A DNA stretch of 30,927 nt from a virus (taxonomy: Duplodnaviria; Caudoviricetes). The stretch spans positions 1 through 30,927 of IMG/VR virus record IMGVR_UViG_3300027798_000153. One strand, 5' to 3'. Made by a program: the position numbers and the translations under genes. The stretch's first letter is position 1. Every line of letters starts with the position of its first letter. Shown piece by piece: positions 1 through 11,530 of the stretch. Below the pieces are notes generated by a model. That model worked only from the letters and a program-made list of their open reading frames with translations, made no database searches and was not told the DNA's origin.

Positions 1-4
1 ATTC

Positions 5-135
5 TTGACACGCAGGCCAAAATTATGGTATAATTTTGGCGCAGCAAAATGTAATACTTTTGTTTCCAAAAAATTCTGCAAACAAAAGTATACATTTTCA
101 GGCACAAAAAAGCCCCTACAAAATGCAGGGGCTTT
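5..135 (+). repeat. Promoter-hairpin element copy 1 (putative sRNA locus / operator array)
   Basis: TTGACA(5-10)-18 bp-TATAAT(29-34), extended -10 TG. The -10 lies inside palindrome CCAAAATTAT-GGT-ATAATTTTGG, followed by GGCGC. Hairpin 46-98 has arms AAAATGTAATACTTTTGTTT / AAACAAAAGTATACATTTT, then terminator 106-135. Confidence 0.85.
106..135 (-). terminator. Intrinsic terminator after A2-like gene (possibly bidirectional)
   Basis: AAAAAAGCCCCTACAAAATGCAGGGGCTTT: GC stem with a T6 tract on the minus strand and T3 on the plus strand. Confidence 0.75.
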
Positions 136-149
136 GTAAGCCTTTCGGC

Positions 150-482
150 TTAGATTGGCTTGGAATTTGCCAAGGCTTCAAAAATTGCACGAAGTGCATT
201 TTTATTGGCTTTTGTAAGCGATTCAATATCATTTTCGGGCATTTTCAAAATTGCCCCGATTGCATCGGCGTGGGCGTCTTTTTTGACCACGGCTTCGCCA
301 GTTTTGGTTTTGTATTCTTTTGCCTTATAGACTTTTTCACGCGACAATTTTGCAACCACAGAGCGCACAGTTTTGCCCATGCTCTCGGCGATTGTTTCCA
401 CAGTCACGCCCGATTGATAATCGGCAACCATTTTTGCAGTTTGCTCGGGAGTGTAATTAACAGATTTGCTAGTCATTTTCAT
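150..482 (-). CDS. T5 A2-like pre-early DNA-binding protein, paralog 1
   Basis: N-terminal NYTPEQT..MVADY, HTH-like TIAESMGKTVRSVVAKLSREKVY and C-terminal ESLTKA resemble T5 A2 as recalled. AAGGA RBS; start may be the ATG at 476. About 69% identical to 4676..4999. Confidence 0.75.
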   Translation of the reverse strand: MKMTSKSVNYTPEQTAKMVADYQSGVTVETIAESMGKTVRSVVAKLSREKVYKAKEYKTKTGEAVVKKDAHADAIGAILKMPENDIESLTKANKNALRAIFEALANSKPI

Positions 483-498
483 TTTCCTTTAAAATTAA

Positions 499-526
499 AT
501 TATACCACAGATTTTCAGATTTTCAA
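499..526 (-). promoter_or_regulatory. sigma70 promoter of A2-like paralog 1
   Basis: Minus strand TTGAAA-16 bp-TATAAT with extended -10 (TGG-TATAAT), upstream of the AAGGA RBS. Confidence 0.65.
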
Positions 527-534
527 GAGATTTT

Positions 535-750
535 TTAAAAAAAGTTGTTGTAAATTCCCAACAAATTTGCAATAAAAAAAGTGCCGTTCAAAACGCCAAG
601 GGCTTTATCACGTTTTACAAAAGCCACGCAAAGCCAAGCCAAAGAACCAAAAGTAAACAAAACATAGCCGATTTGAAACATTTTGGTTGCAACAGCAAAT
701 GAACCCAAAATACTTGCAACAGTACCGAACCAAGAAACAAAAGTAATCAT
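535..750 (-). CDS. Small 3-TM membrane protein (PnuC/SemiSWEET-like size and topology)
   Basis: 71 aa with three hydrophobic segments. Start overlaps the stop of the upstream SprT-like gene (ATGA). Confidence 0.65.
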   Translation of the reverse strand: MITFVSWFGTVASILGSFAVATKMFQIGYVLFTFGSLAWLCVAFVKRDKALGVLNGTFFIANLLGIYNNFF

Positions 751-1127
751 TTTCTAGAAATCTCCATTGTGTGATAAAAATCTGGTTTAAGCCCATATTT
801 TACCATAATTTCACGCCATTTTTGACCATGCCCACAAATTAATTCAGAATCTCCGAATAGGTCAAAATCGGCTTGATGAATAATCTCATGCGGCAGAATT
901 TGTGAAACCATTTGTTTGCAGTAATTATCGGAATGTAAGAAAAATTTATAACCAATTTTGACAATTCTGTCGTCTTGGTGACACATTCCAGCGGTACGCC
1001 ACAAACGCCCGCACAATTTAATTGTGGGCGGGTTAAAATTGCATAATTTAGGATAAATTTCGCAAAGCGAATCCCAAATAATTGCAGTCTCAGCAATTAG
1101 CAGTTTTTCGAGTGTTTTTCTTTCCAT
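747..1127 (-). CDS. SprT-like zinc metalloprotease
   Basis: RLWRTAG..., ILPHEIIH (HExxH) and GHGQKWR are SprT-family motifs. Start reassigned to ATG 1127, 6 nt after TATAAT (1134-1139). Confidence 0.8.
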   Translation of the reverse strand: MERKTLEKLLIAETAIIWDSLCEIYPKLCNFNPPTIKLCGRLWRTAGMCHQDDRIVKIGYKFFLHSDNYCKQMVSQILPHEIIHQADFDLFGDSELICGHGQKWREIMVKYGLKPDFYHTMEISRK

Positions 1128-1194
1128 GCGTAAATTATACAACAAAAAAGCCCAAAAATAATAACCCTACAAAAAATAAGTTAATTTATTTTGC

Positions 1195-1324
1195 TTGACA
1201 CGCACCCCAAAATTATGGTATAATTTTGGCGCCGCAAAATGTAATACTTTTGTTTCCAATTTTTTCTGGAAACAAAAGTATTCATTTTATTTTTGGCAAA
1301 ATAAAAAGCCCCGAAGGGCTTTTT
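1195..1324 (+). repeat. Promoter-hairpin element copy 2
   Basis: TTGACA(1195-1200)-18-TATAAT(1219-1224); first ~65 nt nearly identical to copy 1. Hairpin 1236-1288, terminator 1303-1324. Confidence 0.85.
1303..1324. terminator. Bidirectional intrinsic terminator
   Basis: AAAAAGCCC-CGAA-GGGCTTTTT, with a T5 tract on both strands. Confidence 0.85.
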
Positions 1325-1331
1325 AAAAATG

Positions 1332-1589
1332 TTAACTTTTGTTTCTTGTGGGTTTAATTTTGTAAAACAAAATAACTAAAAGAAAAATCAGATTAGCAGT
1401 ATAATTGAAAACCAAAGGCCACAAAAGTGTTGGCAAAACGTAAACAAAAGTAAACACCTCACCAAAAAACCACATTCCCAAAAATCCCCATGTTAAGCCG
1501 TCAGAATTTTTTGTGCGGTAACTTTCCACGGCTTGAGGCAACCCGCAAAACGCAAAAAGAACAGAACCAAGCCAGCCGATAATTTCCAT
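1332..1589 (-). CDS. PQ-loop / SemiSWEET-like membrane protein
   Basis: IIGWLGSVLFAFCGLPQAVESYRTKNSDGLT is the classic PQ-loop pattern; three TM helices; GGGG RBS. Confidence 0.8.
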   Translation of the reverse strand: MEIIGWLGSVLFAFCGLPQAVESYRTKNSDGLTWGFLGMWFFGEVFTFVYVLPTLLWPLVFNYTANLIFLLVILFYKIKPTRNKS

Positions 1590-1624
1590 TTTTAACCCCT
1601 ATAAATTTCGTCTACTGTAAGTGT

Positions 1625-1633
1625 ATTATACCA
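1625..1633 (-). promoter_or_regulatory. Extended -10 promoter of PQ-loop gene
   Basis: Minus strand TGG-TATAAT about 35 nt upstream of the ATG. Confidence 0.55.
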
Positions 1634-1721
1634 CGATTCAAAAGAAAATTCATCGTTTAATTTTTTATCGTTGTATAAATGCAACAGCAAGGCAAAACAC
1701 CACAAAATTCTCATGTTATTA

Positions 1722-1745
1722 AATGTAACCCTTTCGGGTTACATT
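1722..1745 (-). terminator. Hairpin / probable terminator after exonuclease gene
   Basis: Minus strand AATGTAACCC-GAAA-GGGTTACATT, a perfect 10-bp stem with GNRA loop, 6 nt after the stop. Confidence 0.65.
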
Positions 1746-1751
1746 CCTAGT

Positions 1752-2450
1752 TTACTTGGCTTGAAAGTGGTCACGGGTTTGAAATTCGCGCCAGTTGTAA
1801 GGTGTAACCTTTTGTTTCCAATCGCGTTTTTTGATAATCTCGCGTAAAATCGGCAATTCAAAATCGCGCGCATCTTCGAGTGCGGTATGCGGTTCATCTT
1901 TAAAATCGCCAGTAATAAAACCGCAAACAATCTCGGCGTTTGTTTTGAAAGTCATATTGCCAAATTCAGTCGGGGCATTGAACGCATGATTTTCTAGGCA
2001 AAATTGTTTGAATTTTTTAGTATTGCAAACATTACCAACAGCCGCTTGCCACAAACAAAAGTTCTCAGAAAAGCCGTCTAAGTTAATACCTGTGTTTGCG
2101 CATTTTGATTTGTCAAAAGCCAAATTGTAAGCGGTCAAAATTGGGTTATACTTGCCGATGGCTTGATTAATCCAGTTATTGATTGCAGAAACAGAAGCTA
2201 ACATTCTAGAACCAGAATTAAGCATTTCGTTGTATTTTGTGCGTTTGTCTTTTGCATATTGCAACGACCACAAACCTTTTGCATTTTTATCATAAAATAA
2301 TTCGTGCGCGTCAAATTGGTCTTTTACCAAAACCGCGCATTGATTGTAAATTTTGCCTTCGCGGTCACAAATTACAATCGCAAAATCGGCCACAGTGTCG
2401 GCAATAGTGGTTTCAGTGTCAAGAATCGCAAAGAATTGTTTTTTAGCCAT
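1752..2450 (-). CDS. DEDDh (DnaQ-like) 3'-5' exonuclease
   Basis: ExoI ILDTETT, ExoII AYNLAFD, ExoIII HTALEDA. GGA RBS; TATAAT at 2513-2518 on the minus strand. Confidence 0.85.
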   Translation of the reverse strand: MAKKQFFAILDTETTIADTVADFAIVICDREGKIYNQCAVLVKDQFDAHELFYDKNAKGLWSLQYAKDKRTKYNEMLNSGSRMLASVSAINNWINQAIGKYNPILTAYNLAFDKSKCANTGINLDGFSENFCLWQAAVGNVCNTKKFKQFCLENHAFNAPTEFGNMTFKTNAEIVCGFITGDFKDEPHTALEDARDFELPILREIIKKRDWKQKVTPYNWREFQTRDHFQAK

Positions 2451-2606
2451 TTTGTTTCCAATTACCGATACAGTCGGAATTCGCTGATTGATTCTCTTGA
2501 ACCAATGAAAAGATTATACAACAAAAACCCGAAAAAATCCGTTTTCACCTAAAATAATTTAAATAATTTATTTTGTTGTATTTTGGCGAAATTAGGGTTT
2601 ACCCTA

Positions 2607-2716
2607 TTGACTCCCGCGCAATTTTACTAGTAAAATTGGCGCCTTTGGAAACAAAAGTATTCATTTTAAAAATGTTACCTTTTGTTTCCAAAAAGAAAAG
2701 CCCCTTTCGGGGCTTG
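2607..2716 (+). repeat. Promoter-hairpin element copy 3
   Basis: TTGACT(2607-2612)-18-TAAAAT(2631-2636) inside perfect palindrome CAATTTTACTAGTAAAATTG, then GGCGC. Hairpin 2644-2692 has its arms in swapped order versus copies 1 and 2. Terminator 2690-2716. Confidence 0.8.
2690..2716 (-). terminator. Intrinsic terminator after dmp-like gene
   Basis: Minus strand AAGCCCC-GAAA-GGGGCTT followed by TTCTTTTT. Confidence 0.8.
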
Positions 2717-2718
2717 GA

Positions 2719-3195
2719 TTAGTGGCCTTGAACGCTTGGCACATACACGCCGCGAATATTAAACCTATCACAAACGGCTTTTAGATAGCTAATATTATCT
2801 TCGTAAAAAACAAATTCAGCATTTTTGAAAGTTACCAAATTAAAGAATTTTGTCAAGCCATTAATTTTTAGCGTTTTGCCTGAAATATCCGAACCCTTGG
2901 GGCGTGAGATAAAATAATCGGGCATACCCAAAATATTTTCTACAAATTGCCAATCTGGGTCATTCATCACGCGAGCCGTGGCAATAATAACATAACAATT
3001 TTCGTCTGCTAAGTCTTGGCGGTATTGTTCAAACATTGGTAACAAACCATCATCCATCGCGCGGTATTCATTTTCGCGCCAGTGGTCTAAGTCGATTCGC
3101 GTACCATTTTCATCCGTGATTGTGCGGTAGCGGTGAGAAGAATCAACGATTGTGCCATCCATGTCATAAATTGCAACGCGTGAGATTTTAGCCAT
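2719..3195 (-). CDS. dmp: HAD-family deoxynucleoside 5'-monophosphatase (T5 Dmp-like)
   Basis: ISRVAIYDMDGTIVDSSHR (HAD motif I, close to the T5 Dmp N-terminus as recalled), ATAR (II), K (III), YEDN (IV). Start reassigned to ATG 3195 with GAGGG RBS, 1 nt after the stop of the micro-ORF. Confidence 0.75.
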   Translation of the reverse strand: MAKISRVAIYDMDGTIVDSSHRYRTITDENGTRIDLDHWRENEYRAMDDGLLPMFEQYRQDLADENCYVIIATARVMNDPDWQFVENILGMPDYFISRPKGSDISGKTLKINGLTKFFNLVTFKNAEFVFYEDNISYLKAVCDRFNIRGVYVPSVQGH

Positions 3196-3196
3196 T

Positions 3197-3325
3197 TTAT
3201 TTGCCCTCAGAAAAGAATTGTTCAATAGCCGAATTATACTCCACAATGGTAGCAAAAGCAAGCCCGTGGCGGTCACAAAATCTGTGAAATCGGTTTAATT
3301 GGGTTTTAGTGTATTTTGTTTTCAT
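3197..3325 (-). CDS. 42-aa hypothetical protein (not in ORF track), probably leaderless
   Basis: MKTKYTKTQLNRFHRFCDRHGLAFATIVEYNSAIEQFFSEGK*. ATG is 6 nt after TATAAT (3332-3337); stop abuts the dmp start. Confidence 0.7.
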   Translation of the reverse strand: MKTKYTKTQLNRFHRFCDRHGLAFATIVEYNSAIEQFFSEGK

Positions 3326-3415
3326 GTGTAGATTATAGCAACAAAAACGGCAAAAAACCATTTTCATCATTGAAAAAATTAATCGGGGCGATAGCGAAAA
3401 TAAATCGCAAAACCC

Positions 3416-3504
3416 TTGACAAGTCCCAAAATTATATGGTATAATTTTGGCGCCCCAAAATGAGAAACAAAAGTTCTCATTTTGGTTTTGGAAACAAAAG
3501 TATT
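3416..3504 (+). repeat. Promoter-hairpin element copy 4
   Basis: TTGACA(3416-3421)-18-TATAAT(3440-3445) inside CCAAAATTATA-TGG-TATAATTTTGG, then GGCGC. Hairpin CCAAAATGAGAA-ACAAAAG-TTCTCATTTTGG (3455-3485); second motif copy at 3492. Confidence 0.85.
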
Positions 3505-3697
3505 AAAAAGGCAAATTGTCTTCTAAAACCCTTTCCCAATCATTTGCAGTAATTAGCATTAAAAATGCTAAAAAATAAACAGTTATGAAAACAAAAGGTA
3601 ACATTAGAAAAGTCCACAAAATAAGAATTGGGTTTCTCAATTTCATGCTTTTGTAATACCAATTACCGCCTTTTATTTCAAAATTTCCGATTTTCAT
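3503..3697 (-). CDS. Small membrane protein
   Basis: 64 aa with one long hydrophobic segment; ATGA overlap with the upstream gene. Confidence 0.65.
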   Translation of the reverse strand: MKIGNFEIKGGNWYYKSMKLRNPILILWTFLMLPFVFITVYFLAFLMLITANDWERVLEDNLPF

Positions 3698-4035
3698 TTC
3701 AGCCCCTTAGCTAAGACAATAATATCTTCTTCGTTTAGTGTCACTGGGTCGCCGTGTTGCGCTAACAAAAGCAATTTTTTAGCGTGGTCTAAGTCGCCCC
3801 AAGCGTATTGTGAGCGCCAGCCCCAGCAATCGGAATTATCTAGCGCCTTAATCGCTTGCTCGCGTGTTGGCCAATAAAACCCGCGCCAGCCTAGCGAACG
3901 TCTCGCCATTTTGTAAGCAATAGCGGCTTCATCCCATTTTTCACGATGTGCCATAATTTTAGCAATTACGGCTTTGCACGCCGCTATAACCTTTGCCGAA
4001 TCCATTACGATAGTTGCCATTTTAAACCCAATCAA
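3694..4035 (-). CDS. Hypothetical protein
   Basis: 113 aa, 4-nt overlaps with both neighbours; alternative start ATG at 4020. Confidence 0.7.
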   Translation of the reverse strand: MIGFKMATIVMDSAKVIAACKAVIAKIMAHREKWDEAAIAYKMARRSLGWRGFYWPTREQAIKALDNSDCWGWRSQYAWGDLDHAKKLLLLAQHGDPVTLNEEDIIVLAKGLK

Positions 4036-4382
4036 AAAGAAACAATATCAACATTATAGCACGTTTTGAAATAGTTTCGCCAAGCGGTAAAACCAGAATC
4101 AGTATCATGCCCCAAATCTCGCTCAGTCTCTAATTGCCAAGCGTGGACGTATTCATGCGCTAATGTGGTAAACAAATCCTCATCTGTCTTAACCTCAGAA
4201 GTCGCAATGCGAATTCTATGCGAGAATTTTTTAGCAGAGATTTTATAACCCTCATACATACCCATGCACGAATCACCATCAAAGCGCAAAACCTTAGTTT
4301 TTGATAAATTAATTCGTGATTTTAATTTGAATTCATCTTGCAAGATTAATTCAAAGAGTCGCATTGTATCCGATTTTATCAT
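4032..4382 (-). CDS. SprT-like / HExxH zinc metalloprotease, second copy
   Basis: TLAHEYVHAWQ...GHD..F..WR. Start reassigned to ATG 4382, just after the stop of the micro-ORF. Confidence 0.75.
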   Translation of the reverse strand: MIKSDTMRLFELILQDEFKLKSRINLSKTKVLRFDGDSCMGMYEGYKISAKKFSHRIRIATSEVKTDEDLFTTLAHEYVHAWQLETERDLGHDTDSGFTAWRNYFKTCYNVDIVSF

Positions 4383-4384
4383 TC

Positions 4385-4522
4385 TCAAAGTCCAATCTGT
4401 GAGCAAAGCCAGTCGTCAAATTCTGTATCAGTCCAAACCCATGCAGGGCATGAATTCATTATAGCATCATAGTATGCGCCCGACATACCCCAAATCGCAT
4501 AAATTCTGTCTTGTTTGTTCAT
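4385..4522 (-). CDS. 45-aa Trp/acidic hypothetical protein (not in ORF track), probably leaderless
   Basis: MNKQDRIYAIWGMSGAYYDAIMNSCPAWVWTDTEFDDWLCSQIGL*. TTGAAC-18-TATAAT(4529-4534), then 6 nt, then ATG. Confidence 0.7.
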   Translation of the reverse strand: MNKQDRIYAIWGMSGAYYDAIMNSCPAWVWTDTEFDDWLCSQIGL

Positions 4523-4592
4523 GTGATTATTATACATCAAAAAAGCAAAAAAGTTCAAGTGTGTAAAAATACAACATTAGGGGAAATACCTA

Positions 4593-4677
4593 TTGACAAT
4601 CCCCAATTTTATGTGATAAAATTGGCGCCTCCAACCGCAAACAAAAGTATTCGTTTGCGGTTGGAAACAAAAGTATT
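4593..4677 (+). repeat. Promoter-hairpin element copy 5
   Basis: TTGACA(4593-4598)-18-TAAAAT(4617-4622) inside CCAATTTTAT-GTG-ATAAAATTGG, then GGCGC. Hairpin TCCAACCGCAAAC-AAAAGTATTC-GTTTGCGGTTGGA (4630-4665); second motif at 4665. Confidence 0.85.
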
Positions 4678-4999
4678 AAACTTTTTCGGCCTTGATAAAA
4701 TCGGCAATCTTTGCCAATGCTACCTTGTTGGCCTTAGTGAGCGATTCTGTATCCGCCTCAGTCAAGCCCAAAGCCTCGCCGATAAAATCAGCGTGTGCAT
4801 CTTTTTTAATCACAGCCTCACCCGTCTTAGTGGTGTAAGTCTTAGCGACATAAACCTTTTCGCGTGAAAGTTTCGCAACAACAGAGCGAACAGATTTACC
4901 CAAAGCCTCAGCGATGGATTCAACAGTTGCGCCCTGAGCATAATCAGCAACCATTTTAGCGGTCATCTCTGGGGTGTAGTTTACAGTTTTTGCAGTCAT
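4676..4999 (-). CDS. T5 A2-like pre-early DNA-binding protein, paralog 2
   Basis: Same motifs as 150..482; strong AGGAG RBS. Confidence 0.75.
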   Translation of the reverse strand: MTAKTVNYTPEMTAKMVADYAQGATVESIAEALGKSVRSVVAKLSREKVYVAKTYTTKTGEAVIKKDAHADFIGEALGLTEADTESLTKANKVALAKIADFIKAEKV

Positions 5000-5047
5000 T
5001 TTATTTTCTCCTGAAAGGTCAAGGTTAAGGTTTCATCACGAACACAA

Positions 5048-5076
5048 AGTATAGCACAAAAGGCAGAGCGATACAA
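5048..5076 (-). promoter_or_regulatory. sigma70 promoter of A2-like paralog 2
   Basis: Minus strand TTGTAT-17-TATACT with extended -10 TG. Confidence 0.7.
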
Positions 5077-5109
5077 GCCGCAAAACCGATAGCATCTATA
5101 AATTCTTTT

Positions 5110-5283
5110 TTAGTCATATATCACATCCAAAATTTGATTGTTCATTATAACATAATAAACAACAGTAGAGAAGCCCACGTCACACATAAATGTATTGTCA
5201 CGGGTACGCTTGATATTACGAGCGTCTGCTTGGTTTGCAAGGATTAGCTCGCTTGCCTTAGTGAAGTCTTGTTTCGTTTCCAT
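5110..5283 (-). CDS. 57-aa hypothetical protein (not in ORF track), probably leaderless
   Basis: METKQDFTKASELILANQADARNIKRTRDNTFMCDVGFSTVVYYVIMNNQILDVIYD*. TTGGCA-16-TATACT(5290-5295), then 6 nt, then ATG. Confidence 0.7.
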   Translation of the reverse strand: METKQDFTKASELILANQADARNIKRTRDNTFMCDVGFSTVVYYVIMNNQILDVIYD

Positions 5284-5590
5284 GTGATTAGTATATCACA
5301 AAATTAGACCTTGCCAAGTCTTTTTACAATTATTTTCTAGGTGTTTACCCTAAGTAGTAGAAGGTTTACATATGTAGTACCTTTGTTTGCAGAACATATT
5401 AGAAACAAAAGTATTAGACAGGGCGGTTATCAGACACGCTTTTTCACACACGCCTATGGACCCACCCACATGCGGCCTATGAGGTATTTTTTCAAAACAC
5501 AATAAGGTGCGCATGAAATCCGCGCCCAGCGCTTGACCCTAAATCGCCCCAACTACCCCAAGCGTCCCAACCTGCACAAAAATTTTCAAC

Positions 5591-5619
5591 TTGCCCACCT
5601 ACCCCCAACCTGATATAAT
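5591..5619 (+). promoter_or_regulatory. Promoter of terminase operon
   Basis: TTGCCC-17-TATAAT with extended -10 (TGA-TATAAT); AAGGA RBS follows. Confidence 0.7.
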
Positions 5620-5639
5620 AGTCGAAAAGGAATCTACCT

Positions 5640-6113
5640 ATGACACAAAACCTACCTGCCGAAACGGTCAGAATTGCCCCCGAGGCCCTGGAAGTAGCTA
5701 ATTGCTATCTTCAACTAAATGATCCCCGAGCCGTGGCCTCCGAATTGGACTTGGATGTTGAAACCGTAACGGAGTACCTAAAACGCCGTGAAGTCAAGGC
5801 TTATATTGATAGTGTATTTTTTGATTCGGGCTACAACAACCGATTCTTGATGCGACGTGCCATGGACGCACTTATCAAACAGAAATTTGCCGAGCTTGAA
5901 GAAGCTCAAGCCGGATCGCAAAAAGATATATCAGAACTCTTAGCACTATCGCATAAAATGAGCATGGACTTACTGGACAAAGAAATCCAATTGGAGAAAA
6001 TTCGTTCGGGAACTGGCCCTCAAAAGCAAGTAAACGTTCAGATCAACGAAGGCTTAGACGGATCGAAATATTCGCAACTTGTACAGCGATTGATTACTGG
6101 TGAAGGGGTCTAA
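5640..6113 (+). CDS. terS: Terminase small subunit (T5-like)
   Basis: IAPEALEV..YL, an HTH-like segment and KAYIDSVFFDSGY.NR resemble T5 TerS; TAATG coupling to terL. Confidence 0.8.
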   Translation: MTQNLPAETVRIAPEALEVANCYLQLNDPRAVASELDLDVETVTEYLKRREVKAYIDSVFFDSGYNNRFLMRRAMDALIKQKFAELEEAQAGSQKDISELLALSHKMSMDLLDKEIQLEKIRSGTGPQKQVNVQINEGLDGSKYSQLVQRLITGEGV

Positions 6114-7499: not shown

Positions 7500-7940
7500 A
7501 TGACACAAGAACAATATAACAATTTACTACAAAAGGCTTTTGCGTCAGAATATGCTTTCTACCTAAAAGCGCAGAACTTTCACTGGAACGTTGAAGGTTA
7601 CTTATTTCCGCAGTATCACGAATTTTTTGGCCACATCTACGAAGAAGTTAGTGGTTCGATTGATACGTTTGCCGAACAACTAAGAGCCGCACGAGTTTAT
7701 GCTCCTGCTGCTTTTACACTTCTAGAAGAACTATCGGATGTACGCGGTCAGACCGGTACAGTTGATGGTATGCAAATGACACAAGAACTATTGCTAGACA
7801 GCGATATGTTGGCAGAAATGTTTAAAACCGCATTTTTAGCTGCTGAAGAAATGGGTGACTACGGTCTATCGAACTTCTTTGCAGATCGTCAAGATGCACA
7901 CCGTAAACACTCTTGGATGTTGCGCTCAACATTAAAGTAA
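7500..7940 (+). CDS. dps: Dps-family ferritin-like protein
   Basis: KAQNFHWNVEG..F..YHEFF...YEE.....D.FAEQLR ferroxidase signature and C-terminal KHSWMLRS; AAGGA RBS. Confidence 0.92.
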   Translation: MTQEQYNNLLQKAFASEYAFYLKAQNFHWNVEGYLFPQYHEFFGHIYEEVSGSIDTFAEQLRAARVYAPAAFTLLEELSDVRGQTGTVDGMQMTQELLLDSDMLAEMFKTAFLAAEEMGDYGLSNFFADRQDAHRKHSWMLRSTLK

Positions 7941-8372
7941 ATGGCTAAAAACACAAACAAACGGATACCAGTAAAATGGGTACGTGATCGAGCTAAAGCA
8001 GCTTATGAAAAGCAAGACCACTGCTGTATCTGTGATACACAAGCAGATCTTGAACTACATCACCTACACTCCGTTACCATACTGTTGGAAAGATGGGCCG
8101 AACAAAAAGGCTATGACATTTCTACCGATGATGGTATTCTAGCTGTAAGAGACGAGTTTATTGCAGAGCATCACGACGAGCTGTATGTGCAGGTTTACAC
8201 CCTTTGTAATCCTCACCACGTTGCGCTTCATGGTGTTTATGGTAAAGCTCCAAAACCTGGTTCAGAACCGAAACAGGCTCGATGGATCGAGATACAGCGT
8301 GAAAAACATTTAAACGGTGGCCGTGCCATACCCAAAACCAGTTCAGGCAGTTTTTTCTCAGAATTTATCTAA
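7941..8372 (+). CDS. HNH endonuclease (position of the T5 nicking/packaging endonuclease)
   Basis: CxxC..LELHH...TLCNPHH..LH..YG; lies between terL and portal as in T5. Confidence 0.85.
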   Translation: MAKNTNKRIPVKWVRDRAKAAYEKQDHCCICDTQADLELHHLHSVTILLERWAEQKGYDISTDDGILAVRDEFIAEHHDELYVQVYTLCNPHHVALHGVYGKAPKPGSEPKQARWIEIQREKHLNGGRAIPKTSSGSFFSEFI

Positions 8373-9577: not shown

Positions 9578-11530
9578 ATGGTAGATAAAAATAAAGTACT
9601 TACGCTAACAAGTACATTCACAAAAAGTGGCGATCTACCTACCAAAGGCGACATTATTGATTCTATCATGATCGAAGGTTACGCAAGTACCAACGATGTT
9701 GATAGGCAAGGCGATATTGTACCGACCAGTGTTTGGGAAGCGGGTATGAAGAATTACTTGAAAAATCCAGTAATTCTTGCCTATCACGAACATTGCGAGC
9801 CAATCGGTAGGATGGTAGAACACAAGATTGACGAAAAGGGATTATGGATTAAAGCCAGAATCTCTGCGGCAGCGGAAGATGTGTTCAGTTTAGTAAAAGA
9901 CGGCGTATTAACTGCGTTTAGTATTGGATTCCGCATCGTAGATGCTGAATATAATGCTGCAGCAGAGCTGTTTGTAGTGAAAGAACTGGAATTGCACGAA
10001 ATATCTGTTGTGTCAGTACCAGCGAATCAAAATACAATTTTCAGTCTTTCTAAAGCATTTAATACTGCTGAAGAATTTAAATCTTTCAAAATGCAATTTG
10101 CACCCAAAAGCGAGTCAGCTAAAGGGCTAGAATCCTCTACGGAAGCAAAAAGCGATATTAATAAGGAATGGAACATCATGGATCCAAAAGAACTAGAACA
10201 AATGTTGGCAAAAGCCGCTTCTACAGCTGCTGAGCAAACCGCAAAGGCACTAGCTGAACAGCAAGCCAAATCCGCAGCTGAAGAAGCCGCAAAACAAAAA
10301 CAACAAGCTGAATTTGACGAAAAAGTCAAAGCAGCGGTTATCACATCAGGTCAATCTGGTGCTGAGAAACTAATGGCAGAAGTTGAAAAACGTCTAGCCG
10401 ATGCTAACGAATCTACTAAGTCAGTTATCGCTGGTTTAGAAACTGCTCTAAAAGAAAAAGCAGCTGAAATCGAAGCAATCACAAAGTCAAAAATGAGCTT
10501 TGCTGACGGCAAAAATGCTGGTGGCATGCAATATGGCGACAAAGAAAAGGCTGTTCTATTAGCTAAAATGGCTGGTAAGAGCTTAGAGTCTACAGCTTTT
10601 GGCCGCGATATGGTTCAAAAGTTTGGTGCTCACGTTCCAAGCGCTACATGGGAATTAGAAGTTTCTTTAAATCTAGAATCTGAAGTTCGCCGTCGCTTAG
10701 TTGTTGCTCCATTGCTACGCAACATCACAATGCAAACTAACGTTATGACTATCCCTGTTAACCCAGAAGCTGGTGTTGCAACATGGGTAACTAACGCACA
10801 GTTCGGTACAGCTCCAGCTGCTTTAGGCGCTGCAGGTGCTTCAGCCGGTGCTACTCAAACTCACCAACTAAAAGAAATCACGTTAAACGCATATAAGATT
10901 GCTACTAACGAATACACAGCTTACGAAGAAGAAGAAGATAGCTTGATCGCTATTATGCCTATCATTCGTGACGCTATGGTTCGCCGTGTTGCTCGTGGTG
11001 TTGACCGTGCATTCCTACGTGGTTCTGGATCTGGTGCTGACCCTGTTAAAGGTTTGGTCGGTGCAGACGTATCAAGCGCTGTTACACTAGATATTAGCGA
11101 TAACGCACTTGCTACAGTTGCTACACTACGCAAAATGCGTCAAGACCTAGGTGTTTGGGGCTTAGACCCAGCAGAAGTTGTATTCGTTGTTTCTCAAGAC
11201 GTGTACTACAACCTATTAGACGACCCTGTCTTCCAAACAATGAACCAAGTCGGTACACAAGCTACATTGCTAACTGGCCAAATTGGTCAAATTGGTAATA
11301 GCCCAGTTATCGTTTCTGGTGAATTCGAAGACAGAGCTGCTGGCGCTGCTGGTGCTATCGCACTTGCTCCTGCTAACTTCTTAGTTGGTAACCAACGCGG
11401 TCTACGCATTGATACACAAGAACTAGTTGAAACTCAACGCCGTGTAATGGTAGCTAGCCTACGTACCGGTATGACCCAAGTTACAAATAACTACGGTCCA
11501 GGCGTTTCTGCACTACGTTACATTGCTTAA
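9578..11530 (+). CDS. Prohead protease fused in frame to major capsid protein (HK97 fold)
   Basis: N-terminal IEGYAST...DRQGD, LAYHEH..PIG, AFSIGF, EISVVSVPAN (S78 protease); then a coiled-coil delta domain; then the capsid domain. Internal AAGGA and in-frame ATG at 10178. Confidence 0.92.
   Translation: MVDKNKVLTLTSTFTKSGDLPTKGDIIDSIMIEGYASTNDVDRQGDIVPTSVWEAGMKNYLKNPVILAYHEHCEPIGRMVEHKIDEKGLWIKARISAAAEDVFSLVKDGVLTAFSIGFRIVDAEYNAAAELFVVKELELHEISVVSVPANQNTIFSLSKAFNTAEEFKSFKMQFAPKSESAKGLESSTEAKSDINKEWNIMDPKELEQMLAKAASTAAEQTAKALAEQQAKSAAEEAAKQKQQAEFDEKVKAAVITSGQSGAEKLMAEVEKRLADANESTKSVIAGLETALKEKAAEIEAITKSKMSFADGKNAGGMQYGDKEKAVLLAKMAGKSLESTAFGRDMVQKFGAHVPSATWELEVSLNLESEVRRRLVVAPLLRNITMQTNVMTIPVNPEAGVATWVTNAQFGTAPAALGAAGASAGATQTHQLKEITLNAYKIATNEYTAYEEEEDSLIAIMPIIRDAMVRRVARGVDRAFLRGSGSGADPVKGLVGADVSSAVTLDISDNALATVATLRKMRQDLGVWGLDPAEVVFVVSQDVYYNLLDDPVFQTMNQVGTQATLLTGQIGQIGNSPVIVSGEFEDRAAGAAGAIALAPANFLVGNQRGLRIDTQELVETQRRVMVASLRTGMTQVTNNYGPGVSALRYIA

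Follow-up and report, generated by a model that had tools for sequence, protein, structure and literature searches.

Positions 1 to 30,927 of IMG/VR record IMGVR_UViG_3300027798_000153, a stretch of 30,927 nt referred to here as the window, come from an uncultured freshwater relative of phage T5. The recognisable genes upstream of the terminase small-subunit gene (terS) are all encoded on the minus strand, and five plus-strand units are interspersed among them, each composed of a consensus promoter pointing against the genes, a GGCGC word and a hairpin-forming stretch with a pair of sequence boxes. These units are quite likely DNA cassettes and not genes for small RNAs (sRNAs). The whole reading, which we place a little above even chances, is that each cassette boundary carries a nick-bearing, operator-gated docking site for RNA polymerase that acts as a roadblock and a swivel and later as an antisense damper; the units would be a multiplied, promoter-fused variant of the nick and injection-stop module of T5. 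Judging from synteny with T5 and phi3, the block upstream of terS would be the first-injected or 'pre-early' block.

The promoter TTGAC(A/T)-N18-TA(T/A)AAT occurs at 5, 1195, 2607, 3416 and 4593, always on the plus strand. In all, the window contains 8 matches to the promoter pattern, where shuffled sequence gives 0.10 on average; the three matches outside the units are late-region ones with a 17-bp spacer. Downstream of the promoter, (TT)TGGCGC is found in all five units, and the -10 region is palindromic in each of them, closing on the G before GCGC. The boxes follow at a spacing of 26, 26, ~27, 27 and 26 bp in units 1-5. The plus strand folds into hairpins with z values of -6.7, -8.9, -6.0, -4.1 and -6.6, and the minus strand folds about equally well (-6.2, -8.2, -5.6, -4.0 and -8.0). 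From the sequence, a clear plus-strand U-tract follows unit 2 only, and the terminators of units 1 and 3 face minus-strand genes. Moreover, minus-strand -10 hexamers stand back-to-back with units 2-5 (1134-1139, 2513-2518, 3332-3337 and 4529-4534). The initial annotation had described this five-fold architecture, including the exact spacer, the plus-strand hairpins, the motif positions and arm order with a degenerate copy in unit 3, the orientation opposite to the surrounding genes and the back-to-back promoters, and all of these elements were recovered. Its further statement that the fold is kept from copy to copy does not hold, as the five units adopt three different folds and the constant parts are the box spacing and GGCGC.

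Features of the five units and of a sixth box pair:
5..34, plus strand: backward promoter of unit 1 (TTGACA, 18-bp spacer, TGn-TATAAT), -10 region palindromic
38..42, plus strand: G^GCGC of unit 1, a likely T5-type nick between 38 and 39
51..94: box pair of unit 1 (51-68 reverse, 77-94 forward), 26 bp apart
107..135, minus strand: terminator-like hairpin with a minus-strand U-tract, closing the A2-like gene (from sequence and fold)
1195..1224, plus strand: backward promoter of unit 2; likely nick 1228/1229
1241..1284: box pair of unit 2 (1241-1258 reverse, 1267-1284 forward), 26 bp apart
1303..1324: terminator-like hairpin with A- and T-tracts, for both directions (from sequence and fold)
2594: AGGGTTTACCCT word just upstream of the unit 3 promoter
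2607..2636, plus strand: backward promoter of unit 3 (TTGACT, TAAAAT); likely nick 2638/2639
2646..2690: forward box of unit 3 (2646-2663) and a degenerate reverse box (~2672-2690)
2698..2715, minus strand: intrinsic terminator-like site serving the minus-strand genes
3416..3445, plus strand: backward promoter of unit 4; likely nick 3449/3450
3462..3506, plus strand: box pair of unit 4, both forward, 27 bp apart, the second overlapping the stop codon of the open reading frame (ORF) 3503-3697
4593..4622, plus strand: backward promoter of unit 5; likely nick 4624/4625
4636..4679, plus strand: box pair of unit 5, both forward, 26 bp apart, the second overlapping the stop codon of the A2-like gene
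5374..5417: sixth box pair, 26 bp apart, with neither backward promoter nor GGCGC, ~270 bp before terS

The units belong to a large family, in agreement with the conservation in relatives that the initial annotation had proposed to check. Among 80 terS relatives, 214 of 218 promoter matches lie on the plus strand, and a pattern scan of 14 of the 64 parts of IMG/VR added 237 loci, from which ~560 stored stretches are estimated overall. The pooled set (IMG/VR relatives plus the window) holds 420 distinct units, with an 18-bp spacer in 377; the search pattern itself demanded GGCGC, so the presence of this word in the relatives is not independent. None of the 150 multi-unit loci has units on both strands. 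The -10 palindrome averages 9.1 pairs in 166 units versus 4.2 in 192 other promoters; at least six perfect pairs closing on the G before GCGC are present in 308 of the 420 units, with at most 1 bp of further extension in 257 of these 308. Across the 420 units, GCGC starts 2-5 nt past the -10 element, after a T-run of 0-3 nt. Back-to-back promoters were detected in 58 of 254 units, by a scan judged too strict. The terminal-repeat-type regions of six cultured relatives (T5, phi3, Ceto, Slocum, My1 and PR1) contain no unit promoter, and no description of such units was found in a search of openly readable articles and preprints.

The box as a probable double-stranded DNA site

The box follows the quasi-palindromic profile TG[AC]AAAC-N4-GTATT[AC]A, and its strict form occurs 309 times upstream of terS and never downstream (321 versus 455 kb). 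It behaves as a double-stranded DNA site because its spacing is kept in all orientations, because promoter-less copies exist and because it is exchanged for Fur-like sites, parS or direct repeats. Specifically, of 149 pairs of neighbouring boxes, 93 have a spacing of 26 bp and 118 one of 25-27 bp, in the orientations -+, ++, +- and =+. Promoter-less pairs like that at 5374/5400 are also present in L002, L045, L067 and L071, and single boxes lie within genes of the window at 732, 903, 1406, 1803, 2050 and 2083. The box pairs are likely protein-binding sites.

The slot downstream of the promoter is filled by different motifs, and its sequences are not homologous across the family. Among 377 units, the box is found in 150 (shuffle mean 1.5), a word that we take to be parS in 35, a Fur-like box in 24 and an SBS-like word in 22 (shuffle means 0), a TGT-N-ACA type in 40 and an IscR-like word in 23, and 125 have none of the main motifs; DnaA, LexA, CRP and FNR words are not enriched in these units. 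Fur-like boxes and parS occupy the box slot in L034, L026, L020 and L028, and direct repeats do so in 3 of 370 units, to which a pho-box-like repeat in L020 is added. Two changes account for the box label on a tree of 44 terS loci. The first site is centred at a median of 20-23 nt past the -10 element in six motif classes, and parS, when it is the first recognised motif, lies at least 39 nt from GGCGC.

Two of the slot words have counterparts in bacterial chromosomes. The Fur word of the relatives is identical to the Xanthomonas Fur box as printed; five genomes from the order to which a probe-positive betaproteobacterial genome belongs contain 25 copies of it and none of the control. The parS word is present in all five genomes of that order, with five copies within 24-33 kb of the contig start of G539. 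The IscR and SlmA slot words fit the printed consensus; presumably, others resemble HexR, PhoB, LysR, Zur or sigma-54 sites. All seven names are regarded as resemblances only and were dropped, the chromosome tests being negative or weak. The A2-like proteins were considered as binders of the box and are disfavoured, since their predicted recognition helix is nearly invariant in the box-free L034 and L026; the binder may be phage-coded. Separately, an AGGG-N4-CCCT word lies between the back-to-back promoters at window positions 2594 and 4578; in the sampled order, some genomes are enriched for it as well (12:0, 10:1 and 8:0 in G467, G539 and G506).

The GGCGC word and the proposed mechanism

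The major nicks of T5 fall at R/GCGCRGG on the minus strand, which also codes for terS, according to the AY543070 annotation and PMC3517423. The purine^GCGC core of this rule is found as G^GCGC in all five units of the window, on the terS-coding strand as in T5; within positions 1-5700, plus-strand GGCGC occurs at the five units only, compared with 12 copies on the minus strand. In the first-step nick of T5, a palindrome comes right after the cut and a Fur-like box stands beside it, and the same order of ^GCGC, palindrome and Fur-like box recurs in L028 and L034. T5 differs in that its ~10 kb of first-step DNA contain a single such nick, which no consensus promoter overlaps; in the clade of the window there are 5-9 sites per block, each within a promoter start region, and the tail after GCGC is relaxed (C 176, A 149, G 39 and T 6 as the next base in 370 units).

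The ends of the contigs also bear on the word. Among terS contigs whose left end lies at least 400 bp upstream of terS, 7 of 62 begin exactly with GCGC (0.14 expected), compared with none of 63 right ends. When two further locus sets are included, the count rises to 11 of 146 distinct left ends, with another three that begin one base earlier. Within the unit-bearing block, the count is 10 of 89 (0.2 expected; Poisson P 3e-14 under a uniform null), and no right end of 120 begins with GCGC on the other strand. These starts include L524, whose unit type has no -10 palindrome. A contig break caused by repeats would be expected to keep the shared promoter. G^GCGC on the terS strand is probably a T5-type single-strand nick site, and contig ends may serve to map virion nicks in uncultured phages. 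A homologue of T5.153 (7941-8372; E 1e-30, 37% identity) lies beside the portal gene, as in T5, and is a candidate nickase by homology; 2 of the 15 records listed carry the label 'putative nicking endonuclease'. In T5-type phages, nicking is associated with the late-region genes sciA/sciB, of which the homologue would be a possible counterpart.

In the proposed mechanism, a phage nickase would cut the terS strand at G^GCGC during packaging, and after injection the nick would lie within the region opened by RNA polymerase, on the non-template strand. Host polymerase would dock at the backward promoter, and the boxes, centred ~20-23 bp past the -10 element in the classic position of a repressor, as in the lac operator, would be bound by a dimeric protein. 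Little backward RNA would be made, the polymerase-protein complex would cap each cassette as a roadblock, and the nick would allow rotation of DNA still tethered to the capsid. The fold-back hairpins flanking the nick would serve at the DNA level, by aiding recognition of the nick site. After the nicks have been sealed and there are more copies than box-binding protein, firing of the backward promoters into the cassettes would set in. It would compete with the back-to-back promoters of the genes and so damp the earliest genes, in a clade in which a tblastn search of 81 terS loci with T5 A1 gave no match. Antisense damping of genes by the backward promoters, one of the roles raised by the initial annotation, may still apply.

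Several observations weigh against this reading. The full R/GCGCRGG rule is found in none of the five window units, and a purine follows GCGC in unit 1 only. Contig starts are an indirect sign of a nick, the contigs being of unstated library type, and the window's own contig does not start with GCGC. Late regions have 85 GGCGC words on the plus strand versus 167 on the minus strand (order-3 observed/expected 0.46 versus 1.21) and 32 versus 74 distinct GGCGC[AG] contexts; this strand bias favours a nick word but is not unique, as GGCGC ranks 117th of 1022 5-mers and GGGGC[AG] gives 20 versus 39. T5 mutants without nicks are viable (PMC3517423). A terminal repeat was sought through contig depth, and no twofold step was seen. 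The window box has no regulon-like enrichment over reversed-pattern controls in samples of 401, 151, 121, 61 and 41 genomes, the contexts of 30 and 33 genome matches share no target gene, and HexR-, IscR- and SBS-like words are not enriched in 51 genomes. Lastly, palindromes run 3-4 bp past the box cores, which also fits hairpin selection, and boxes are more alike within than between units (7.97 versus 6.88 of 10 in inverted pairs, and likewise 6.81 versus 6.19 in direct pairs); both features could stem from hairpin selection on DNA or RNA, or from template switching.

If the docking-site reading is right, the nicks of T5-like phages, so far unexplained, would be linked to gene control and not to small RNAs, in a widespread clade that puts the nick word in promoters, many per genome, beside exchangeable operators. 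A further step, which we regard as speculative and rather unlikely, is a nick-programmed promoter switch, in which packaging would put a strand break into the melting region of the operator-gated backward promoters. In that case, virion DNA and replicated DNA would differ in behaviour at the same promoters, the earliest genes would be timed without A1, host regulators such as Fur would be read through interchangeable operators, and the nicks of T5 would gain a function. The role of the site-specific nicks and the switching of transcription classes in T5 are stated as unknown in PMC3517423 and PMC7472727, respectively.

Alternative readings and related systems

The alternative that survives best, an unlikely one in our estimate, is that the units are collision terminators. 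The backward promoter would fire a short RNA into the hairpin and converging polymerases would halt at the cassette ends; GGCGC would be a promoter discriminator only, and the contig starts would be assembly or transcript-start effects. An inverted repeat near the start is indeed present in 228 of 235 family-core units, 158 of 328 repeats start 0-4 nt after GGCGC, and units 4 and 5 abut stop codons with no intrinsic terminator. However, a usual start site would lie further from the -10 element than GCGC does, terminators are already present at units 1-3, and the 26-bp box spacing, the exact Fur and parS sites and the promoter-less pairs are left unexplained. Bidirectional termination driven by head-on collision together with a nascent stem-loop has been described, according to the abstract of 10.1101/2022.10.23.513370.

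More doubtful is a landing array for host factors, in which polymerase, Fur, ParB and others on the first-entering DNA would act as a ratchet or a shield, or would be titrated after replication, promoter output and nicks being secondary. The exact parS and Fur sites suit this idea, as do the boxes inside pre-early genes (37 versus 10.8 +/- 2.7 in synonymous shuffles); late genes, however, show 16 versus 5.1 at the same threshold, and the homologues are not independent. Cultured relatives carry comparable sites in the same region. Fur-like boxes occur in T5 and My1, and two parS-type sites lie between pre-early genes of Vibrio phage phi3 (L082:4822 and 6935). A consensus-type word that we take to be a LexA box is found in 5 of the 6 cultured Demerecviridae examined, within their first-injected repeat regions (L081:6213 and 9411, which is T5, L082:526, L083:593, L452:6447 and L454:9486). 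Against the array, a ratchet requires neither a fixed distance from the -10 element nor a single strand, one incoming genome titrates little, and no host match was found for the window box. Repeat Regions 2/3 of T5 are similar in being non-coding first-injected DNA with many palindromes and host-protein sites, namely DnaA boxes at a fixed 52-bp spacing, whereas DnaA boxes in the units number 4 against a shuffle mean of 6.8 and the units are dispersed between genes. The accessible text of the preprint on these repeats (10.1101/866236) makes no mention of promoters, Fur, parS, nicks or LexA.

The reading first put forward for the units, a family of abundant 60-100 nt RNAs that display AAACAAAAGUA and sponge a host RNA-binding or defence protein, is now held to be improbable. 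The consensus promoters and the strong plus-strand hairpins speak for it, and the arms co-vary within units. G.T mismatches exceed A.C mismatches by 26:9 in inverted box pairs, but this was dropped as a sign of RNA structure because direct pairs, which cannot pair, give 34:12. Mismatches elsewhere run 29:35, and 36:35 across 328 repeats; as controls, terminator-like hairpins gave 23:7 and rRNA 20:20, the latter control having failed. A better fold of the minus strand (57 of 86) was likewise dropped, as shuffles carry the same bias, and the strand and wobble tests are neutral on the RNA reading. The RNA runs X14 and X20 supplied unstranded contigs of relatives only, in which coverage gaps over the units are uninformative. 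In contrast to the expectation for an sRNA, the stems of units 1-3 bury the motif, which also stands in either orientation, exists without a promoter and is replaced by unrelated words; a crude scan of 254 units found a plus-strand terminator in 14 and a minus-strand one in 37. The Rfam search that had been suggested gave no match at the gathering score and 12 weak matches, none to CRISPR-repeat or antitoxin families.

The comparison drawn at the outset with Racr RNAs and pseudo-ToxI, which, like the units, are reportedly short, structured and driven by a promoter within accessory DNA of a phage, fails in the same way: the units match no CRISPR-repeat or antitoxin family and are not tandem, and their motif is neither kept single-stranded nor fixed in orientation. 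Of the roles initially considered, docking of RNA polymerase or a repressor on DNA is instead favoured by the box spacing and the exchangeable sites. The broader claim of selection on motif plus structure survives as selection on architecture and not as an sRNA family defined by motif and structure.

The least probable account, that the repeats mainly serve to swap gene cassettes and that boxes and hairpins arise only secondarily, from duplication and from mutations that perfect palindromes, draws on the gene content between units, which varies among relatives, and on contigs of related strains that join unit to unit (e.g., 3415-4593 and 2644-1237), but these joints are short-sided and may stem from repeats, and the orientation, the 18-bp spacer, the exact host sites and the strand-specific contig starts stay unexplained. 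The model for it is the PeSL cassettes of T4-type phages, which, according to PMC2839356 and PMC4122927, are likewise repeated intergenic sigma-70 promoters with a stem-loop between variable small genes; in those phages the cassettes are exchanged, as may also hold for the units. PeSL promoters, however, drive the next gene and end in a Shine-Dalgarno sequence and a start codon, whereas the window units point against the genes, facing their 3' ends, have the hairpin after the promoter and add operator-like boxes and the nick word.

Gene blocks around the units

The minus-strand genes form cassettes between the units, and further genes follow on the plus strand, namely TerS (5640), TerL, Dps, the T5.153 homologue, portal and a fused protease-capsid protein. 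The window TerS is ~40% identical to TerS of Demerecviridae from Vibrio and Serratia. Two A2-like proteins are encoded in the upstream block, and the profile of their family (22 members) matches T5 A2 with E 1.7e-6 among 5 test sequences. Searches of cultured phages with the window at the nucleotide level and with an A2-like protein gave no match, and the relatives of the Dps gene were uninformative on the host. The sequencing run in which the window is best represented is a freshwater metagenome.

Genes of the window mentioned in the text:
150..482, minus strand: A2-like DNA-binding protein, the paralogue faced by unit 1 (PHROGs 323/1725, profile)
535..1127, minus strand: cassette of a DUF6552-like membrane protein and a SprT-like protein, leaderless (-10 at 1134-1139)
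1332..2450, minus strand: cassette of a PQ-loop protein and a 232-aa protein (phrog_20187; -10 at 2513-2518)
2719..3325, minus strand: cassette of a HAD phosphatase (phrog_415) and a short leaderless ORF (-10 at 3332-3337)
3503..4522, minus strand: cassette of four ORFs including a second SprT-like protein (-10 at 4529-4534)
4676..4999, minus strand: A2-like DNA-binding protein, the paralogue faced by unit 5 (PHROGs, profile)
5640..6113, plus strand: T5-like terminase small subunit, marking the strand that T5 nicks
7941..8372, plus strand: T5.153 homologue, candidate nickase (37% identity)

The minus-strand genes starting at 1127, 3325, 4522 and 5283 have a -10 hexamer 6 nt before the start and a leaderless look. 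The Dps/ferritin-like gene (7500-7940) sits between terL and the T5.153 homologue and fits the iron theme of the relatives' Fur boxes. The prohead protease and the major capsid protein, separate in T5, form a single 650-aa ORF (9578-11530). Dmp-like partial matches (35-41% over ~87 aa) are present in the blocks of L033, L042, L050 and L061, although A1 was not found. To the left of the window start, L001:561-2420 is a long gene-poor stretch that contains one more unit and a third A2-like gene, along with CACTGGCGC in three repeats and several copies of the word CTGACCCTAAA, and is a candidate counterpart of the injection-stop region with clustered nick words. In run X14, a single metatranscriptome contig from a relative ends at window position 494 with a poly-A loose end, adjoining the predicted start of a minus-strand promoter at 499-526.

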